From an uncultured Methanotrichaceae archaeon (lineage in GTDB: Archaea > Halobacteriota > Methanosarcinia > Methanotrichales > Methanotrichaceae), in assembly GCA_964632755.1 (NCBI GenBank), contig CAZWDT010000002.1, forward strand, positions 2,279 through 66,278: DNA of 64,000 nt. Direction: 5' to 3'. A model generated the notes under the pieces. The model was given only the letters and a program-made list of their open reading frames with translations, had not been told where the DNA came from and searched no databases. Below, piece by piece: positions 7,954 through 45,541 of the stretch (the first letter of the stretch is position 1; each line of letters starts with the position of its first letter). A program made the position numbers and the translations under genes.

Positions 7954-8067
7954 TCCCTAATCTATCCATTGATCAGCCTATCTGCCGGCGGCCCCTTGAG
8001 GGGGCCCCCAACTCCAAGATAGTTTAAATTAGAACCATGCATCACATTTAATCATGATATCGAGGCG

Positions 8068-8181
8068 ATGGCCAGGGACCACCAGGTGGAGATGGGCCGG
8101 ATCTTTCGAAAGGCCCTCTTCTTCATCCTCATAGCTGTAGCTGCGCTCTCGACTCTGGGGCTCTTTCTCTCGCTCAATTAG
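8068..8181 (+). CDS. possible 37-aa single-TM micro-protein ending at a TAG codon (see finding on in-frame continuation to 8301)
   Basis: My own translation reads MARDHQVEMGRIFRKALFFILIAVAALSTLGLFLSLN*. It is not in the ORF track because it is too short. Confidence 0.3.
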   Translation: MARDHQVEMGRIFRKALFFILIAVAALSTLGLFLSLN

Positions 8182-8344
8182 ATCATAGACGCATGGGTGA
8201 CGGACCGCTACGCTCCGCTCGCACGGGCGGCGCTATACGCCTTCTTGATGGCGGCCTCGATCTACATCATCTTGATGATCCTGTCGGCGGGGCCCCGATG
8301 ACATGGCAGGCGAACCTACTTCGCTTGATGGGGGATGTGAACAC

Positions 8345-8535
8345 CCCCTATTCACTCCTATTTCAACCACGAATGAGCGCGAATGAACGCTAATATAACA
8401 TTTAATTCACGTGCATATGTAGCCTATCACTCGATTAATACACCGCTTTATCTGAATTGCTTTGCATCATAGTTAGCAATAAGTTCGATTGAAAGGTCGG
8501 TTACCTTCAAGTAATCGATAAGATTCGAACGCCCT
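8345..8535 (+). repeat. dispersed AT-rich intergenic element, copy A (about 190 nt)
   Basis: It shares CAACC.CGAATGA...GCGAATGAACG(C/T)TAATAT, ...ACCGCTTTATC..., ...GTT(A/G)(G/A)CAATAAGT... and ...CCTTCAAGTAAT(C/T)GA... with copies at 20150..20340 (minus) and 42020..42200 (plus). Confidence 0.75.
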
Positions 8536-20149: not shown

Positions 20150-20340
20150 CCCCCCTCGCTCTTCTCGCAACTGCTCAATTGCTTGAGGGTATCAATCTTC
20201 TATTTGTACTTATTGTCAACTTTTACACATATAAAATCCCACAAAACGCCATATTTAAGCTCAAATTGGCCCTGAATGAACGCGCATTAATGGAAAATAT
20301 TAACGTTCATTCGCATATCATTCGCGGTTGAGATAAGGGG
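20150..20340 (-). repeat. dispersed AT-rich intergenic element, copy B (reverse orientation)
   Basis: The reverse complement reads ...ccccttatctcaaccgcgaatgatatgcgaatgaacgttaatatt...gttgacaataagtacaaatagaagattgataccctcaagcaattgagcag... and is colinear with copies A and C. Confidence 0.75.
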
Positions 20341-20488
20341 AGATCTCTTTTCCACTCATCATCGCCAAAGGGCGAAAGGATTTTAAACATCTATGCTCTC
20401 CTCCGCACGTATTTGTACAATTGAATACATCATTGGAGGATCTGCCTTGGAAAATATGGAGATGAACTATAGATCGGGGGAGTCCTGA

Positions 20489-38196: not shown

Positions 38197-38448
38197 GTCT
38201 TAAATCACATATAAACATCATATACCTTTCGATGATATCGCCTACTGGAGGATCCAGTAAGCTGATTAGAATCGCTTTCGAGAGAGCCCTCCAGCTGCTC
38301 GACAATGCCGTTTCCGGGGAAGCGCCCAGTACATGCGCAGACGGATCGCGACCCTTCGAAATTTTTAAGTAATAGCCTTGCGTATATATCATGATAATAG
38401 ATCTAAATCATGGCACTATTATTAATATGTCAATGGAGGTTATCTTCG

Positions 38449-41400
38449 ATGGATAAGAATTGGGTTCCAGGCGTCGTGCTGGTCGTCCTCTTGGCCCTGA
38501 CCGGCACTGCCTGGGGAGAAGTAAGTTCGTCATTCTCTGCGAGCGATGGAGAGAGCACGGTTGGCTTCTCAACGGTCTATGGAGCCGGCCTGAATGACAG
38601 GATCGCGGACTCAGGCAAGGCCGGCTTCAGCTCAGGGTTGAGCCTCAGCCGTGCGCTTCTGGCCTCGGGAAGCATGAACGAGTTTCATTATGTGGATGAC
38701 GGCACAGGCAGGGCCTCAGTGAGGGCTGAGGTTGAGAACGCCGCTGACTATCAGTATCAGTACGCGCTCTTTCCTGCGGAAGGAGATGTTGCACCGAGCG
38801 CCTACGTCCAGGCACGTCATTGGATGACGGCGCTGGATGCCGATAGGATCTACTGCGAGGAGGTTGCGACTAACGCCGAGGGCGACCTCGCCGTCACCAC
38901 GATAACAGTTGAGGATGGATCACTGCAGAACTACTTCGGACTTGCCAGGGCGACGGCTACTGACGTTACCACCTCCCACAGCGCGGATAGCGCGGAGGGC
39001 TCGATGGTGCTCATAGTCGCCGGGGCAAGGAACGATGTATCCGACCACGCCTATCACTCCCTAACGGCAAGGGATGCAGGCCTTCCTGCGATAATGACCG
39101 AATTACAAGCATCGACCTACGCCGATAACGACTTCGCAAGAGCCTCCATCGAAAGCGTCCTGGTGGATGTATCTGACGGCACGCTAAATATGGAGCAGGG
39201 ATCGAGCAACTCCATTGCCGACTCCTCCGGCTCCTGGACAAGCGTGATCGACGGTCAGCTGAGCTTCGAGGGCAAATGCTGGGCCGATGAGACGCCGAGG
39301 GCGCAAACGAGCATAGCCCGTCTCGTTGCTGACGGCTCCACCTATCACCATCTCCTGGCAGGCGACGTTCCTTGGGAGCTTCTGGGAGTTCCTGGGCGGA
39401 CCTCTCAATCCCTAACTCATGTCGATGGCCATCTCGAGCTCTCGGGCGATGCCCTGGAGAATCCGACGGGGACCTCGGTCAATGTTGCGATCTCGGCTGA
39501 GGGAAGCATCGAGCAGAACCTGTGGGGAGAGAACGCGGATGCCAACTTGAAGGCCGAGGCGGAAACGACCGTGGAACCTGGCAGCATCGAGTATACGGGA
39601 TCCGCCCAGGCGAGCAATACAAGGACCAGCGTCAAGGTCGACCTCTTGGCGGAAGCTCCGAATGGCTCGATCGACCATAGCATCGATGCTGGGGGCATGA
39701 CCGAGGAGGTTCCCGCTTATGCGGTCGACCTGGCCGAGTTATCGGCGGTTGGCACGTTTGCCTACGACTGGACAGCTCTCTCCTTAGGGACGCTGGACTA
39801 CAACGGGGAGGCCACATCGTGGAAGAGCGGCCCCGATACCATTGCCTTGGCCAAGGTGAACGAGCTCTTCGCTCATACCGACTTAGGCTCGATCTTCCAT
39901 ACCATCATGGCCGAGAATCCCGAGGGCGACTGGGCTCGCGAGGAGACGACCGTGGAAGCCTACAATAGCTTTGGCGATCTCTCCTTCTCCGGCTACGGCA
40001 AGGCATGGAAGACGGGAGCGACGGTCCAGGGCTGCCTATCTGCCTACACGCCATATGGGTATATCGGCAACACAATGGAGACGGGAACGAGCCTTTTCTC
40101 CGGATGCACAACGGCCCTGCAGGGGGGATACGACCTCTACGCATGGGATTCCAGCGATCTAAATGGAGGCGGATCGCTCGACCACACAGGTACGGCGATG
40201 GCCCGGAATGGCAAAGGCGGGATCGAGCCGTCTGGAGGAAATCCCGCGATCAGCCTTGCAGCAGTCCTCGATGCTAGGCTCGACACTCCCGGGAGCATAA
40301 ATCATTATATGGGCGCAAACGATGGAAGTGGCCACGCGGTCTATACGAGCACCGACCTGAACTCGGGAGAAGCGCAGTATCAATCCGATGGCGATGGGAT
40401 CATAGAGCCGTTGAACGGCATTCCATTGGCCGAGTATCACTACTCCGGCACGGCAAGCGCGCTTCAAGGAGGCGCCTATCTCAAGAACATGGAGACGAAT
40501 GGATATGTGACGGGCTCGGGCAGCATCAACCACCACGTATCTGCAAGTGCATGGCCTCCTGGGCTCGATGCCTATCAAGATCTCGGCTTGAGCGGCCTTG
40601 GCGGCTGCAGCTTCTACTATGCCGGCTTTGCACTTAGCTACTACAGCGCAAGCGGCGATCAGGTCTTCATCAACACGCCATACATAATCGGTTGCAGCAC
40701 TGGAGACCTCTACCACTCCCTCTCTGCCTTATCGTGGTCGTACCCATATCTGGCAACTGTGGGATCCTCGAATCTTGAAGCATCATCGAGCGTGAACGCC
40801 TATGGCTGCGCATCCATCTCTGCAAGCACTCAGGCGAGGGCAAGCAGCGTCGAGGCGAGGGTGGTCGAGGACTTGTACGTCGATGCAGGGGAGATCTACC
40901 ACTCAACAGAAGCCCATAGCAGTCCTCTGGAGGAAGTCGCGGCGCTCCAGATGGAGGGCCTCGGCAACAACGCATGGGAGAGCGACCTCAGCCAATCTGA
41001 GGAGGGCTCTGCTAACATGCACCATGCTGGATCTGCTGTGGCAAGGGATGGCCTAGCCAAGGTGCAGGTGGACGATCATACGGCATACGGGGATTATCTG
41101 ACGCTGGATGCCGGCGCAGGCGAGCTCTATGAATACGGCGGGCCTTCGGCCGGTGTCGACGTAGAGGTCGGATATGGTTGCTACAGCGATGGAACAGAGA
41201 TCGAGACTGCCACACTCACGCCATCCACTCTCTGGTATTTCGGATTGGCCCAGGACATCACCGGGTCAAGGGTTGCATCGGTCGTCACAAAGGGGCTTCT
41301 GGCCTCCGGCGATGGGATCTACGTCCAGCATTATGCCCATACTATGGACGATCTGGAGAATTGGCAGGAGTCCACAGTCGGTGTGGAGATCGATAATGGT

Positions 41401-41637
41401 GAGCTCAGCCTCCTTGGAAACGCGAAGGCTGATCTAACTAGCACCTCTGCATATCAGAGGGGAAGCGCGACTGGCGAGTACATCAACGTCCACGGCGAGG
41501 CATTGAACCCATGGGCTACGCAGTGTGACCAGGCATATGGAGGCTACACGGCCTGGTTCAAGAGCATGCGGTTCTATGATCGAGCCTGGACGAATCCAAC
41601 TGTCGCCGATGAGATGCATGGATTGATATACACATGA
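38449..41637 (+). CDS. large acidic secreted/surface protein, paralog 3
   Basis: I prefer the ATG at 38449, which is preceded by ggaggt. MDKNWVPGVVLVVLLALTGTAWG is followed by EVSSSFSASDGESTVGFSTVYGA..DRIAD..FSSGLSLSR. The C-terminal motif is RFYDRAWTNP. The track ORF starts at 38410. Confidence 0.85.
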   Translation: MDKNWVPGVVLVVLLALTGTAWGEVSSSFSASDGESTVGFSTVYGAGLNDRIADSGKAGFSSGLSLSRALLASGSMNEFHYVDDGTGRASVRAEVENAADYQYQYALFPAEGDVAPSAYVQARHWMTALDADRIYCEEVATNAEGDLAVTTITVEDGSLQNYFGLARATATDVTTSHSADSAEGSMVLIVAGARNDVSDHAYHSLTARDAGLPAIMTELQASTYADNDFARASIESVLVDVSDGTLNMEQGSSNSIADSSGSWTSVIDGQLSFEGKCWADETPRAQTSIARLVADGSTYHHLLAGDVPWELLGVPGRTSQSLTHVDGHLELSGDALENPTGTSVNVAISAEGSIEQNLWGENADANLKAEAETTVEPGSIEYTGSAQASNTRTSVKVDLLAEAPNGSIDHSIDAGGMTEEVPAYAVDLAELSAVGTFAYDWTALSLGTLDYNGEATSWKSGPDTIALAKVNELFAHTDLGSIFHTIMAENPEGDWAREETTVEAYNSFGDLSFSGYGKAWKTGATVQGCLSAYTPYGYIGNTMETGTSLFSGCTTALQGGYDLYAWDSSDLNGGGSLDHTGTAMARNGKGGIEPSGGNPAISLAAVLDARLDTPGSINHYMGANDGSGHAVYTSTDLNSGEAQYQSDGDGIIEPLNGIPLAEYHYSGTASALQGGAYLKNMETNGYVTGSGSINHHVSASAWPPGLDAYQDLGLSGLGGCSFYYAGFALSYYSASGDQVFINTPYIIGCSTGDLYHSLSALSWSYPYLATVGSSNLEASSSVNAYGCASISASTQARASSVEARVVEDLYVDAGEIYHSTEAHSSPLEEVAALQMEGLGNNAWESDLSQSEEGSANMHHAGSAVARDGLAKVQVDDHTAYGDYLTLDAGAGELYEYGGPSAGVDVEVGYGCYSDGTEIETATLTPSTLWYFGLAQDITGSRVASVVTKGLLASGDGIYVQHYAHTMDDLENWQESTVGVEIDNGELSLLGNAKADLTSTSAYQRGSATGEYINVHGEALNPWATQCDQAYGGYTAWFKSMRFYDRAWTNPTVADEMHGLIYT

Positions 41638-41675: not shown

Positions 41676-42019
41676 ATCGGATCTGCCCGCGTTGTGTAGG
41701 CGTATCGCTTTTCCTGCCCTATCTGCCGGGTTTGCCGATCGTTGCTGAAAGATCGTAGCCGATGCATCTCTCTTTTCCGTATCTTGTCCGCCACTATTAC
41801 GCCTTATCGTCTGATCGTTGCCGAGAACATGCTCAATATGTTGAGGTAAATTGCCCTTTTGGCTAATCTTCAGCGGAACCGCAATGCCTCCTGATAGTGA
41901 TCTCTTTTGATCAGTATCTCAAGTATCCTCACGATAATTACAAGTGCTATCTCCCTATTTACGTCACCGCCAGATATCGTTTTTCATCATTTGTGCATGA
42001 GTCTGGCGGGATCATGAAC

Positions 42020-42200
42020 GTGTTATCCGCGAATGAACGCGAATGAACGCTAATATCTCCTTTTATTCGCGCGCATTTGCAGCCCCTCTGACCGGAGTTT
42101 ATAAACCGCTTTTATCCAAGTTTTGGTGTGCTGAAGTTGACAATAATTCCAAGTGGAAGATTAGCAGCCTTCAAATAATTGAGCAACTACGAACATAGTG
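42020..42200 (+). repeat. dispersed AT-rich intergenic element, copy C
   Basis: ttatccgcgaatgaacgcgaatgaacgctaatatctcc...aaaccgcttttatcc...gaagttgacaataattccaagtggaagattagcagccttcaaataattgagcaac is colinear with copies A and B. Confidence 0.75.
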
Positions 42201-42356
42201 CTGGATAAAGCAACCTCATGGCATGTGTTTTTTTTTATCTGCCGCATTGTCCTATCGTTGCCGTACATCGCTACTGCTGCAGATTGGCGCAAGGCAGAAA
42301 AGGCCGGCCCCCCAACGAATTCTCCGGCTTACGGCGGGAAAATGAGGGCTGTTGAT

Positions 42357-43277
42357 CTATGCTTGAAGAGGCAGGCCCCTTGGGAGGATATCTGCTAGGT
42401 ATTCCTCCCATCTATCACCATCATCCGATGCGATCTCCGATATCCAGCCGCAGCACTCGATCCAGTCCTCTTCCTCCTCCTTCGTCTCCGCGATGTTCAC
42501 CGTCCCCATGCTGAGACTAGTCTCGAATCGTCCAAGGAAGCTCTGCATCCCCTCGTGCATAAGAGAGGAGTTGGCAGCGCTCTGGCGATAGTCCAGTTGG
42601 CCCAGGCCGGTTGAGAGGGTCTGGCTCTCGTAGGCGAACCTCTTGGTTGGTTGGTAGTTCACAGCGATCACGTTATCCAGGTCCGTCGTCACAGTGACGT
42701 TGAAGCGATCCAGGCTGGAGCTGAGGAAGCGGGTTCGAGATAGAACGGGGTTGTAGTTCAAGGTCGACTTGACGCGGTCCAGGTTGTTGTCGGCAACCTC
42801 CCTATCGTTCATCCCCCAGCCCTCGTATTCAAGGGCGCGCTCGGATTCAAGGATCATCGGCCACTTCTCGAAGTAATGAAAGTAGGTGAAGGGATCGTTC
42901 GCCGCCTTGGTCGCGTTATAATCGACCGATTCGTTATCATCCGATCTGATAAACGTGCTCTCCGAGGCGGAGATCTGCCCCTCCCTCGCATAATCCCTCT
43001 CCTGAAGGCCGATCCCTTGAAAGCCGATATCGATGTAACGGGAGTGATACCCCCCCGAGGTTCGCCCGCCAGGGCTTATTTCTATCTTGGACACGGTCCC
43101 ATAAGAGTTCTCATCCAGGCTCATGTTCAACTTCATCCCCCGGCGATGTATGCTCCAGCCTTCGACGGAGGCCTGCCAGGAGTTGGCCGAGACGATTGAC
43201 GCAGCGAATATCAGCACCAAAATGAGATACAGCCACCTCTCAAAGGGATAGGCCTTCTCGATCCTCTTTCCTCTCAT
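42357..43277 (-). CDS. N-terminally anchored/secreted hypothetical protein
   Basis: 306 aa. It has one N-terminal hydrophobic segment (WLYLILVLIFAASIVSA) and an acidic Cys-containing tail (EEEEDWIECCGW). I recognise no family. Confidence 0.6.
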   Translation of the reverse strand: MRGKRIEKAYPFERWLYLILVLIFAASIVSANSWQASVEGWSIHRRGMKLNMSLDENSYGTVSKIEISPGGRTSGGYHSRYIDIGFQGIGLQERDYAREGQISASESTFIRSDDNESVDYNATKAANDPFTYFHYFEKWPMILESERALEYEGWGMNDREVADNNLDRVKSTLNYNPVLSRTRFLSSSLDRFNVTVTTDLDNVIAVNYQPTKRFAYESQTLSTGLGQLDYRQSAANSSLMHEGMQSFLGRFETSLSMGTVNIAETKEEEEDWIECCGWISEIASDDGDRWEEYLADILPRGLPLQA

Positions 43278-44893: not shown

Positions 44894-45541
44894 TCAGGCG
44901 CTTTTAGAGGCCATCTCCTCGGCCCGACTCATATCCGCGAGATGCCTGTTCAGCACCTTTGCGATCGTGTTCAGCTTGGAGCGGTTGCATGTGGCCCCGC
45001 GTGTAACGCCTGTTACTATATCCACAACCTCTCCCTTTGTAACCGTGTTCGGCCTTGTGGGCTTGACGAGCCTGGTCTTTACGCCCTCCCTTGCGAAGTC
45101 CTCGAAGTCAACGGGACACTGAGCGACCACTACCGCCGGGATGTCCACGAGCGCCAGTACCTCCCTCGTCTTGAAGATGACGTGGGACTTCACGTTCCCC
45201 AGGTGGATGACGGCGATCTTGTGCCTTGCAATCTGCGCCACCTCCTTCTCGGTGAGCCCAAAGGTGGGGCCGTATCCGCGGCCGGCCGCCTGCGGGAAGC
45301 TCTCCGGAACGCCCGCCCCCGAGTTCAGGACAAGGACGCTCGTCTGGATGCCCTCCCTTCTCAGGCCATATGTGATCTCGCAGACGGGCTTTGTGATATG
45401 CCTCCTTCCCGGGGACATGGCGATCGCAATCACATCCGGCCTCGCAGCCTCTGATAGCGTTCCCCGCTGGGCAAGGCCTCCTCCCTTTGCAAGGCCCATG
45501 CTCTCCCGGCAGTCCACAACCTGCGTAGCTCTTCCGATCAT
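44894..45541 (-). CDS. mcrC: methyl-coenzyme M reductase operon protein C homologue
   Basis: 215 aa. MIGRATQVVDCRESMGLAKGGGLAQRGT...AMSPGRRHITKPVCEITYGLRREGI...PVDFEDFAREGVKT matches my memory of McrC. No mcrA/B/G genes are in the window. Confidence 0.65.
   Translation of the reverse strand: MIGRATQVVDCRESMGLAKGGGLAQRGTLSEAARPDVIAIAMSPGRRHITKPVCEITYGLRREGIQTSVLVLNSGAGVPESFPQAAGRGYGPTFGLTEKEVAQIARHKIAVIHLGNVKSHVIFKTREVLALVDIPAVVVAQCPVDFEDFAREGVKTRLVKPTRPNTVTKGEVVDIVTGVTRGATCNRSKLNTIAKVLNRHLADMSRAEEMASKSA

Follow-up and report, generated by a model that had tools for sequence, protein, structure and literature searches.

Short dispersed repeats with a probable origin at one end of a GxxExxY nuclease cassette in the genome of an uncultured Methanotrichaceae archaeon

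Features of the locus

The window, i.e., the whole stretch of 64,000 nt analyzed here, contains three copies of an AT-rich repeat, designated A, B and C. They are colinear, as an earlier note on this DNA had stated (71% mean column identity in an alignment), and none of them overlaps a plausible ORF. The motif GCGAATGAACGYTAATAT was found four times in the window when up to three mismatches were allowed, versus 0.07 matches expected from dinucleotide shuffles; three of these matches are exact (one per copy), and the fourth is an overlapping three-mismatch match in copy C. The presence of three related copies is real and beyond chance. The spans first assigned to them cover only the core of the element, the units extending further according to their homology with other family members, and their content had gone unrecognized: it is the 3' end of a GxxExxY nuclease gene, in antisense, together with the repeat arm that flanks this gene. 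The orientation of the copies relative to neighboring genes was correctly described as varying; A and C face the 3' ends of convergent genes. Neither a tRNA nor an Rfam family was detected within the window at gathering thresholds.

Copy A occupies positions 8313..8530 of the plus strand (approximate ends, placed by alignment with 31 other copies). It is a degenerate hybrid of the structural classes described below, its left end, in the orientation used by the earlier note, resembling the terminal inverted repeat (TIR) of class 2 and its right end resembling class 1 or 3; no target duplication was detectable around it. Its arm block, AACCACGAATGAGCGCGAATGAACGCTAATAT (8365..8396, plus strand), differs from the family consensus at one position and consists of two 10-nt GCGAATGAAC units anchored by AACC. 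A decayed gene tail lies at 8467..8530 on the minus strand, with SNLIDYLKVTDLSIELIANYD where the intact gene has AQLLNYLKATNLPLGLIVNFG (our own reading, together with DNA homology to gene-derived copies). Upstream of copy A, the window has 209 nt (8061-8270) where the sister species G001 carries about 1.06 kb extra (G001:C20:26741-28012), a difference due either to an insertion in G001 or to a deletion in this genome.

Copy B (20167..20345, minus strand) consists of the bare 179-nt unit and runs from GCAACTGCTCAATTGCTTGAGGG to GGTTGAGATAAGGGGAGATC as read on the plus strand. It has no outer inverted repeat, and its flanks TCTTCTC and TCTTTTC agree in six of seven bases. The arm block AACCGCGAATGATATGCGAATGAACGTTAATAT (20297..20329, minus strand) is degenerate and contains one inserted base; the gene tail (20167..20250, plus strand) is decayed and frameshifted, reading QLLNCL.. 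and then ..LLFVLIVNFYTYKI (our own reading and DNA homology). Copies A and B yielded no significant protein match in tblastn with the intact protein encoded on contig C18; they are too decayed for this, and DNA homology links them to the family.

Copy C is a 366-nt unit of class 1 bounded by inverted repeats (41825..42190, plus strand). Its TIRs measure 22 nt. The left one, GAACATGCTCAATATGTTGAGG (41825..41846, plus strand), shows no mismatch to the class-1 right-end pattern and begins a second, frameshifted gene-tail fragment on the plus strand that converges on the first. The right one (42168..42190, minus strand) has three mismatches, and its reverse complement GTAGTTGCTCAATTATTTGAAGG corresponds to the codons AQLLNYLKA. 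No target duplication was found (three of eight flank bases agree). The first gene tail (42097..42186, minus strand) was detected by tblastn; it reads LLNYLKAANLPLGIIVNFSTPKLG, a stop codon and KRFIN, and matches residues 99-128 of the intact GxxExxY protein with 73% identity (E 2.3e-10) and this single in-frame stop. The arm block ATCCGCGAATGAACGCGAATGAACGCTAATAT (42025..42056, plus strand; one mismatch) can pair with the partner half-arm TTATTCGCGCGCATTTGCAG in a hairpin at 42025..42082 of the plus strand (-20.9 kcal/mol, z -3.9).

Such a stable hairpin is possible in some copies, and copy C, situated between convergent genes, has a T-run (42227-42237) behind it. Both features would suit small structured RNA genes or cis-regulatory RNA leaders, the former being one of three candidates named by the earlier note. 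The remaining evidence makes this explanation highly improbable: no Rfam family matched at gathering thresholds, the hairpin is significant in just eight of 32 copies (z -3.9 in C, -2.1 in B and -0.6 in A), and one side of it is invariant while its partner decays, so that a search for compensatory changes found none. In addition, the orientation relative to neighboring genes is inconsistent, and orthologous copies diverge at about the rate of their flanks. Although the central TTTATATAGCGC resembles an archaeal TATA box, it represents the KRYIN codons of the gene tail, read in antisense; a promoter reading of this motif was accordingly rejected.

The genes convergent on copy C are a 1075-aa ORF with an N-terminal hydrophobic stretch (38410-41637, plus strand) and a 306-aa ORF (42357-43277, minus strand) that has paralogues elsewhere in the genome (e.g., C33:19294-20247); both may encode cell-surface proteins. 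Further along the window, an ORF at 44894-45541 is McrC-like in our reading, which marks the organism as a methanogen.

Family size and unit organization

The genome assembly (G000) comprises 2.46 Mb in 100 contigs with a G+C content of 56%. A BLAST search with copy C as query yielded 53 matches, and an iterated nhmmer search of the whole assembly yielded 118 hits that merge into 62 loci; the count of three copies thus holds for the window and not for the genome. Near full length, i.e., covering at least 140 of the 205 model positions, are 32 of the nhmmer hits; other loci retain either the 5' block alone or the 3' half alone. Units measure 179-366 nt, and the coding content of the 62 loci is limited to gene fragments interrupted by stops. 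The 32-nt arm block occurs 57 times in the genome with at most five mismatches, 15 of these occurrences being perfect. At C34, C20 and C53 there are tandem arrays of units of about 80 nt, in which the block opposes its own inverted copy.

The common unit, given in the orientation of the gene, starts with GCAACTGCTCAATTACTTGAAGG (codons AQLLNYLKA) and continues through the gene tail, the partner half-arm and the arm block to GGTTGAAATAAGGAGAGATA. At the source locus, this last stretch provides res with its ribosome-binding region, which means that the boundaries of the unit differ from the arms of the cassette described below. In class 1, represented by copy C, a frameshifted second gene tail in convergent orientation gives rise to inverted ends of 22-45 nt. 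In class 2, the inner part of the unit is nested in the backbone of a miniature inverted-repeat element (MITE) with the ends GGTTCTTCGCTGAATTGTGTGG and GGTTCCTCGCTATTTGATGTGG; the corresponding end of copy A is degenerate. Class 3 is the bare 179-nt unit without inverted ends (e.g., copy B), for which short flanking repeats are tentative (GAAGATC, 7/7, at C32; 6/7 at C44 and at copy B).

The class-2 end, GGTTCTTCGCTGAATTG, also bounds a 178-nt element free of GxxExxY sequence, of which the genome holds seven near-identical copies (C13:3386-3563, C13:26220-26397, C21:66-243, C33:7484-7661, C41:189-366, C62:606-783 and C73:446-623). Two of these have perfect 8-bp target duplications (AAAGAAAT and AATTTAAA), and no repeat family of the genome appears to be younger than this MITE. 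The same end is found on GxxExxY-free elements of about 160 nt in the genomes G016 and G060, again with perfect 8-bp duplications and with cores that are hairpins of CACAGAG-type units. Among 301 sampled genomes of the class, only those of Methanotrichaceae matched the end motif repeatedly; outside this family, single matches with one mismatch occurred in nine genomes.

The complete relative genome G060 has about 44 end-motif matches on C1 (e.g., 257585-257740). The 11 sites that were retrieved are MITEs of about 155 nt with the shared end and with cores of phased CTCTGTG hairpins; the two that were read have perfect 8-bp target duplications. At two sites (L164 and L165) a GxxExxY gene lies within 1 kb.

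Source gene and cassette

On the strand opposite to that of the arm block, the 3' half of the element encodes QLLNYLKATNLPLGLIVNFGTPKLRWKRYIN, the C-terminus of a GxxExxY protein (last 30-35 codons). A tblastn search with the intact protein located the sole full-length gene of the genome at C18:43166-43588. Its product has 139 residues and matches PF13366 over positions 2-116 of 117 (E 1.6e-39) and TIGR04256 (E 7e-42); this match over the whole domain applies to the C18 gene, the copies in the window holding just the last 30 residues or so. The same search yielded ten further loci (12 further HSPs), copy C among them, with the C-terminal part only, from residue 93 or beyond, except that homology at C24 starts at residue 41.

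The C18 gene is enclosed by inverted arms, each built of 10-nt GCGAATGAAC units anchored by AACC or GGTT. The left arm, AACCGCTAATGAACACGAATGAACACGAA, contains the gene start ATGAACACGAATGAACACGAA (MNTNEHE), i.e., the start codon and the first seven codons. The inverse arm, TTAGTGTTCATTCGTGTTCATTCGTGGTT, follows the stop codon, which identifies the 5' block described in the earlier note (AACCRCGAATGAACGCGAATGAACGCTAATAT) as the cassette's right arm. The one intact nuclease gene thus has inverted copies of a dispersed repeat (57 blocks) on both sides. Its neighbors are a gene ending in ..IFGNDTMTIVDV and one starting with MALHPDFPQSPHEIIDPAVRWFPADEALRETGMEKLMPPLV, which we take, from our own reading, to be type III mod-like and res-like, respectively. 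In the surrounding region (C18:42300-44100), the 5' end of the gene forms a tandem array of units of about 70 nt, in which the assembly contains N-runs, and the 3' end forms one of 100-nt units.

One could suppose that each copy is a separately decayed full-length cassette and that a truncated unit never moved. The cassette clearly tends to be transferred horizontally, tandem arrays of its two ends lie around the intact gene, and a weak protein match at C24 extends back to residue 41. The last of these persists in plain tblastn; a near-complete second gene at C24, suggested by an iterated protein HMM, was discarded as the profile had been contaminated by the flank of C24 itself. Independent decay is nevertheless very unlikely, because the left boundary GCAACTGCTCAATT is common to dozens of copies, because TIRs and 8-bp duplications enclose the truncated unit itself, and because the left arm and the N-terminal codons are found in no copy apart from the arrays at the intact gene.

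The same arrangement is present at the orthologous mod/res locus of a Methanothrix relative, where neither of the two examined copies of the gene is intact, L060 carrying an in-frame stop and L066 having split reading frames. At 60-83% protein identity, relatives are found in Nitrospirota, Hydrogenedentota, Acidobacteriota, Planctomycetota, Chloroflexota, Bacteroidota and other phyla. Among 23 relative loci examined, the gene start reads ACCGCGA-ATGAACGCGAATGAACGCGAATTG or a close variant in 19, and ATTAGCGTTCATTCGCGTTCATTCGCGGTT or a close variant lies 3' of the gene in 17; several of the 23 are situated at the same mod/res junction. Units of the CACAGAG or CACAAAG type are also located downstream of GxxExxY genes in G016, G017, G018 and G040, and CACAGAG-like units lie beside such a gene in G060. 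No convincing class-2 ends were found around intact or near-intact cassettes at the loci scanned in G000, G016-G018, G040 and G041. The order mod, GxxExxY, res recurs in several bacterial phyla (L086, L087, L089 and L104).

The function of PDDEXK_3 was listed as unknown in a fold survey of 2012 (PMC3424549), and full-text literature searches returned no paper assigning a function to GxxExxY/PDDEXK_3.

Insertion sites, candidate transposases and age of the copies

At least seven of the eight flank bases match in nine of the 24 TIR-bounded elements, versus 0.76 expected from 500 permutations of the flank pairing (maximum 5). Perfect target-site duplications (TSDs) among the GxxExxY-derived units are TTCATGGG at C7, CTATTTAT at C15 and TCCAAAAA at C42, and four more match at seven of eight bases. 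None of the three window copies has a convincing TSD (3/8 in C, 6/7 in B, none in A). With its TIRs and the enrichment of 8-bp duplications, the family is best matched by the non-autonomous mobile element among the three candidates proposed earlier; the third of these, a remnant of an integration site, is unsupported.

A transposase with matching ends was not found. The GGTTCT ends and the 8-bp duplications had suggested an IS6-type parent, and this was abandoned since the genome contains no IS6-type gene (no PF13610 match). Self-BLAST of the assembly revealed ordinary paralogues only and no high-identity repeat of IS size. Two DDE_Tnp_1 genes adjoin copies, on C18 and C28, and neither qualifies as the missing transposase: the gene at C18:27099-28655 belongs to a nested IS with its own, unrelated ends CCTGACTTCCCAATCAGTTAGGCATAAG, and the one at C28:5360-6619 has a class-2 end on one side only. 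At the end-motif sites of G016, G060, G001 and G044, short elements were found almost throughout, none of the sites containing a transposase with matching ends. In the relatives, one MITE is interrupted by an IS3-type element (OrfA) and another by an IS110-type element, both by our own reading. The assemblies being drafts, the partner transposase may simply be missing from them.

The IS on C18 (27000-28780), about 1.75 kb long and encoding a 519-aa DDE transposase, interrupts one family copy. This copy also has a 37-nt direct duplication of host sequence, GGCGCAACCACGCARCAATCTGCCGAAGTTCACGCTC, on its two sides, 10-29 nt away.

The age of the copies was assessed by synteny of the contigs with those of G001, a sister species of the same genus. 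Copy A is present at the orthologous site with about 90% identity and copy B with 83%, in both cases similar to the identity of the flanks; the copies at C7, C15, C42, C71 and C29 are orthologous as well. All seven copies tested are thus older than the divergence of this species from G001; neither presence/absence polymorphism nor a sign of recent movement was seen. Decaying relics, the outcome that the earlier note had named as refuting its reading, are a partial fit for A and B, which are old and shared with the sister species. At their present sites, copies A, B and C are most likely inert relics.

Conservation of the arm block

Conservation along the unit is uneven. Across 30 full copies, agreement with the consensus is 0.93-0.97 over the 34 nt at and around the arm block, compared with 0.5-0.8 in the other parts. 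Within classes, pairwise identity is 0.91-0.96 for the arm block, 0.60-0.66 for the partner arm and 0.67 for the gene tail; between classes, the respective values are 0.93, 0.50 and 0.53. Since the split from G001, 15 of 218 block positions have changed (6.9%) versus 113 of 1025 in the rest of the unit (11.0%), which is not a significant difference (Fisher p 0.085); ongoing purifying selection on the block at each locus is at most a weak effect. A dependence of arm conservation on an intact nuclease did not emerge clearly from the comparison of G000 with G001: the latter has no PF13366 hit, yet 17 of its 36 blocks with up to three mismatches have at most one, compared with 27 of 48 in this genome.

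One explanation for this pattern is that the GxxExxY nuclease works at the arm block and would propagate or homogenize the copies in the manner of REP/RAYT or Ssn/NTS, the TIRs being incidental. A lone intact nuclease gene lies between inverted arms that are dispersed at 57 sites, the arm DNA is conserved beside the gene across phyla, and within copies the block is 0.91-0.96 identical as opposed to 0.60-0.67 for the rest. Gene-less 80-nt arm doublets form tandem arrays, and CACAGAG/CACAAAG hairpins occur in MITEs of other genera with like units near their GxxExxY genes. Against this stand the near-perfect blocks retained by G001, the non-significant difference in divergence since the split, the fixation of all seven tested copies in both species, and the ends of the unit, which lie inside the gene and 16 nt past the arm and so differ from the arm ends. 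Moreover, we know of no GxxExxY protein for which cutting or binding has been shown. On balance, this role of the nuclease is unlikely.

The family, with the homology, architecture, TIRs, enrichment of 8-bp TSDs, copy age and uneven conservation observed here, probably represents non-autonomous repeats, at 62 loci, derived from one end of a GxxExxY cassette (PDDEXK_3, PD-(D/E)XK fold). The segment copied around the genome would extend from the codons EAQLLNYL to about 16 nt beyond the right arm and include the ribosome-binding site of the next gene. It occurs in three forms, namely bare (as in B), joined to a convergent tail (as in C), or nested in the GGTTCTTCGCTGAATTG-ended MITE backbone of Methanotrichaceae. 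Insertion may have been effected in trans by a DDE-type transposase making 8-bp staggered cuts, which would by now be lost or is not assembled.

Apart from the missing transposase, the lack of convincing TSDs at the window copies and the lack of presence/absence polymorphism, two observations speak against the preferred explanation. The bare 179-nt units have no inverted ends and are poorly explained by a DDE mechanism. The TIRs (0.5-0.8 to consensus) are less conserved than the internal arm block (0.93-0.97); if no cis-acting sites existed other than the outer repeats, the reverse would be expected. The conservation of the block may reflect its role in the source copies rather than a present service of each copy to the host: it would have been constrained in those copies that spawned insertions, while the rest of the unit drifted between bursts. 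The block would then have mattered for propagation. Such a constraint on source copies sits uneasily with a purely end-driven DDE mechanism and would be compatible with a nuclease-plus-arm system.

Comparison with known systems

Like the MITEs of bacteria and archaea, the family is short (180-370 nt), non-coding, multi-copy and intergenic; two of its three classes have TIRs, TSDs of a fixed length of 8 bp are enriched, and gene-free MITEs in related genomes have the same ends as one class. It differs from MITEs in that a parent IS with the same ends was not found, in that its best conserved part is an internal 32-nt block and not the ends, and in that its cargo is a recognizable gene tail plus a repeat arm, with bare 179-nt units lacking inverted ends. 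Full-text searches on miniature inverted-repeat elements in Methanosaeta/Methanothrix returned no description of these MITEs.

As in REP/REPIN systems with their RAYT, one protein gene lies between inverted short repeats, and the repeat is also found in intergenic regions as singles, hairpin doublets and clusters. RAYT, however, is a Y1/HUH transposase, whereas GxxExxY has the PD-(D/E)XK fold, and the repeats here are arrays of phased 10-nt units. A second parallel is Ssn with its NTS repeats, described as a small nuclease specific for a repeat with hundreds of copies per genome, with many homologues that differ in specificity (PMC11893778). Ssn differs from GxxExxY in its GIY-YIG fold and in its experimentally shown cleavage of single strands.

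What is new here is that the arm is packaged with the last 35 codons of the gene within units bounded by TIRs and TSDs, and that its conservation has been measured. It is conceivable, if doubtful, that the 32-nt arm (AACC plus two GCGAATGAAC units) is the cis-acting site of an undescribed class of bacterial and archaeal nuclease-plus-repeat systems. The GxxExxY protein would in that case recognize the phased units, the conservation of the arm would record selection for propagation in source copies, and the TIRs and 8-bp duplications reported here would be the first insertion footprint tied to such arms.

GxxExxY/PDDEXK_3 is a very large protein family, and the same arm sequence is found beside close relatives of this gene in archaea and in distant bacterial phyla, frequently at a site between type III mod and res genes. 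The arm can travel around a genome within units that bear ordinary transposon hallmarks, and it is the best conserved part of these units (about 0.93 identity versus 0.65 for the rest).

Implications for annotation

The family accounts for a group of long AT-rich gaps in the genomes of Methanotrichaceae, and the TATA-like and -35-like motifs in these gaps should be read as coding relics. At L091, L094, L089 and L103, read-through into the downstream arm adds tails to the annotated GxxExxY proteins, such as IGVHSRPFAV; this is the translation of ATTCGCGTTCATTCGCGTCCATTCGCGGTT, and read-through of this kind thus probably accounts for many spurious C-terminal extensions in databases.
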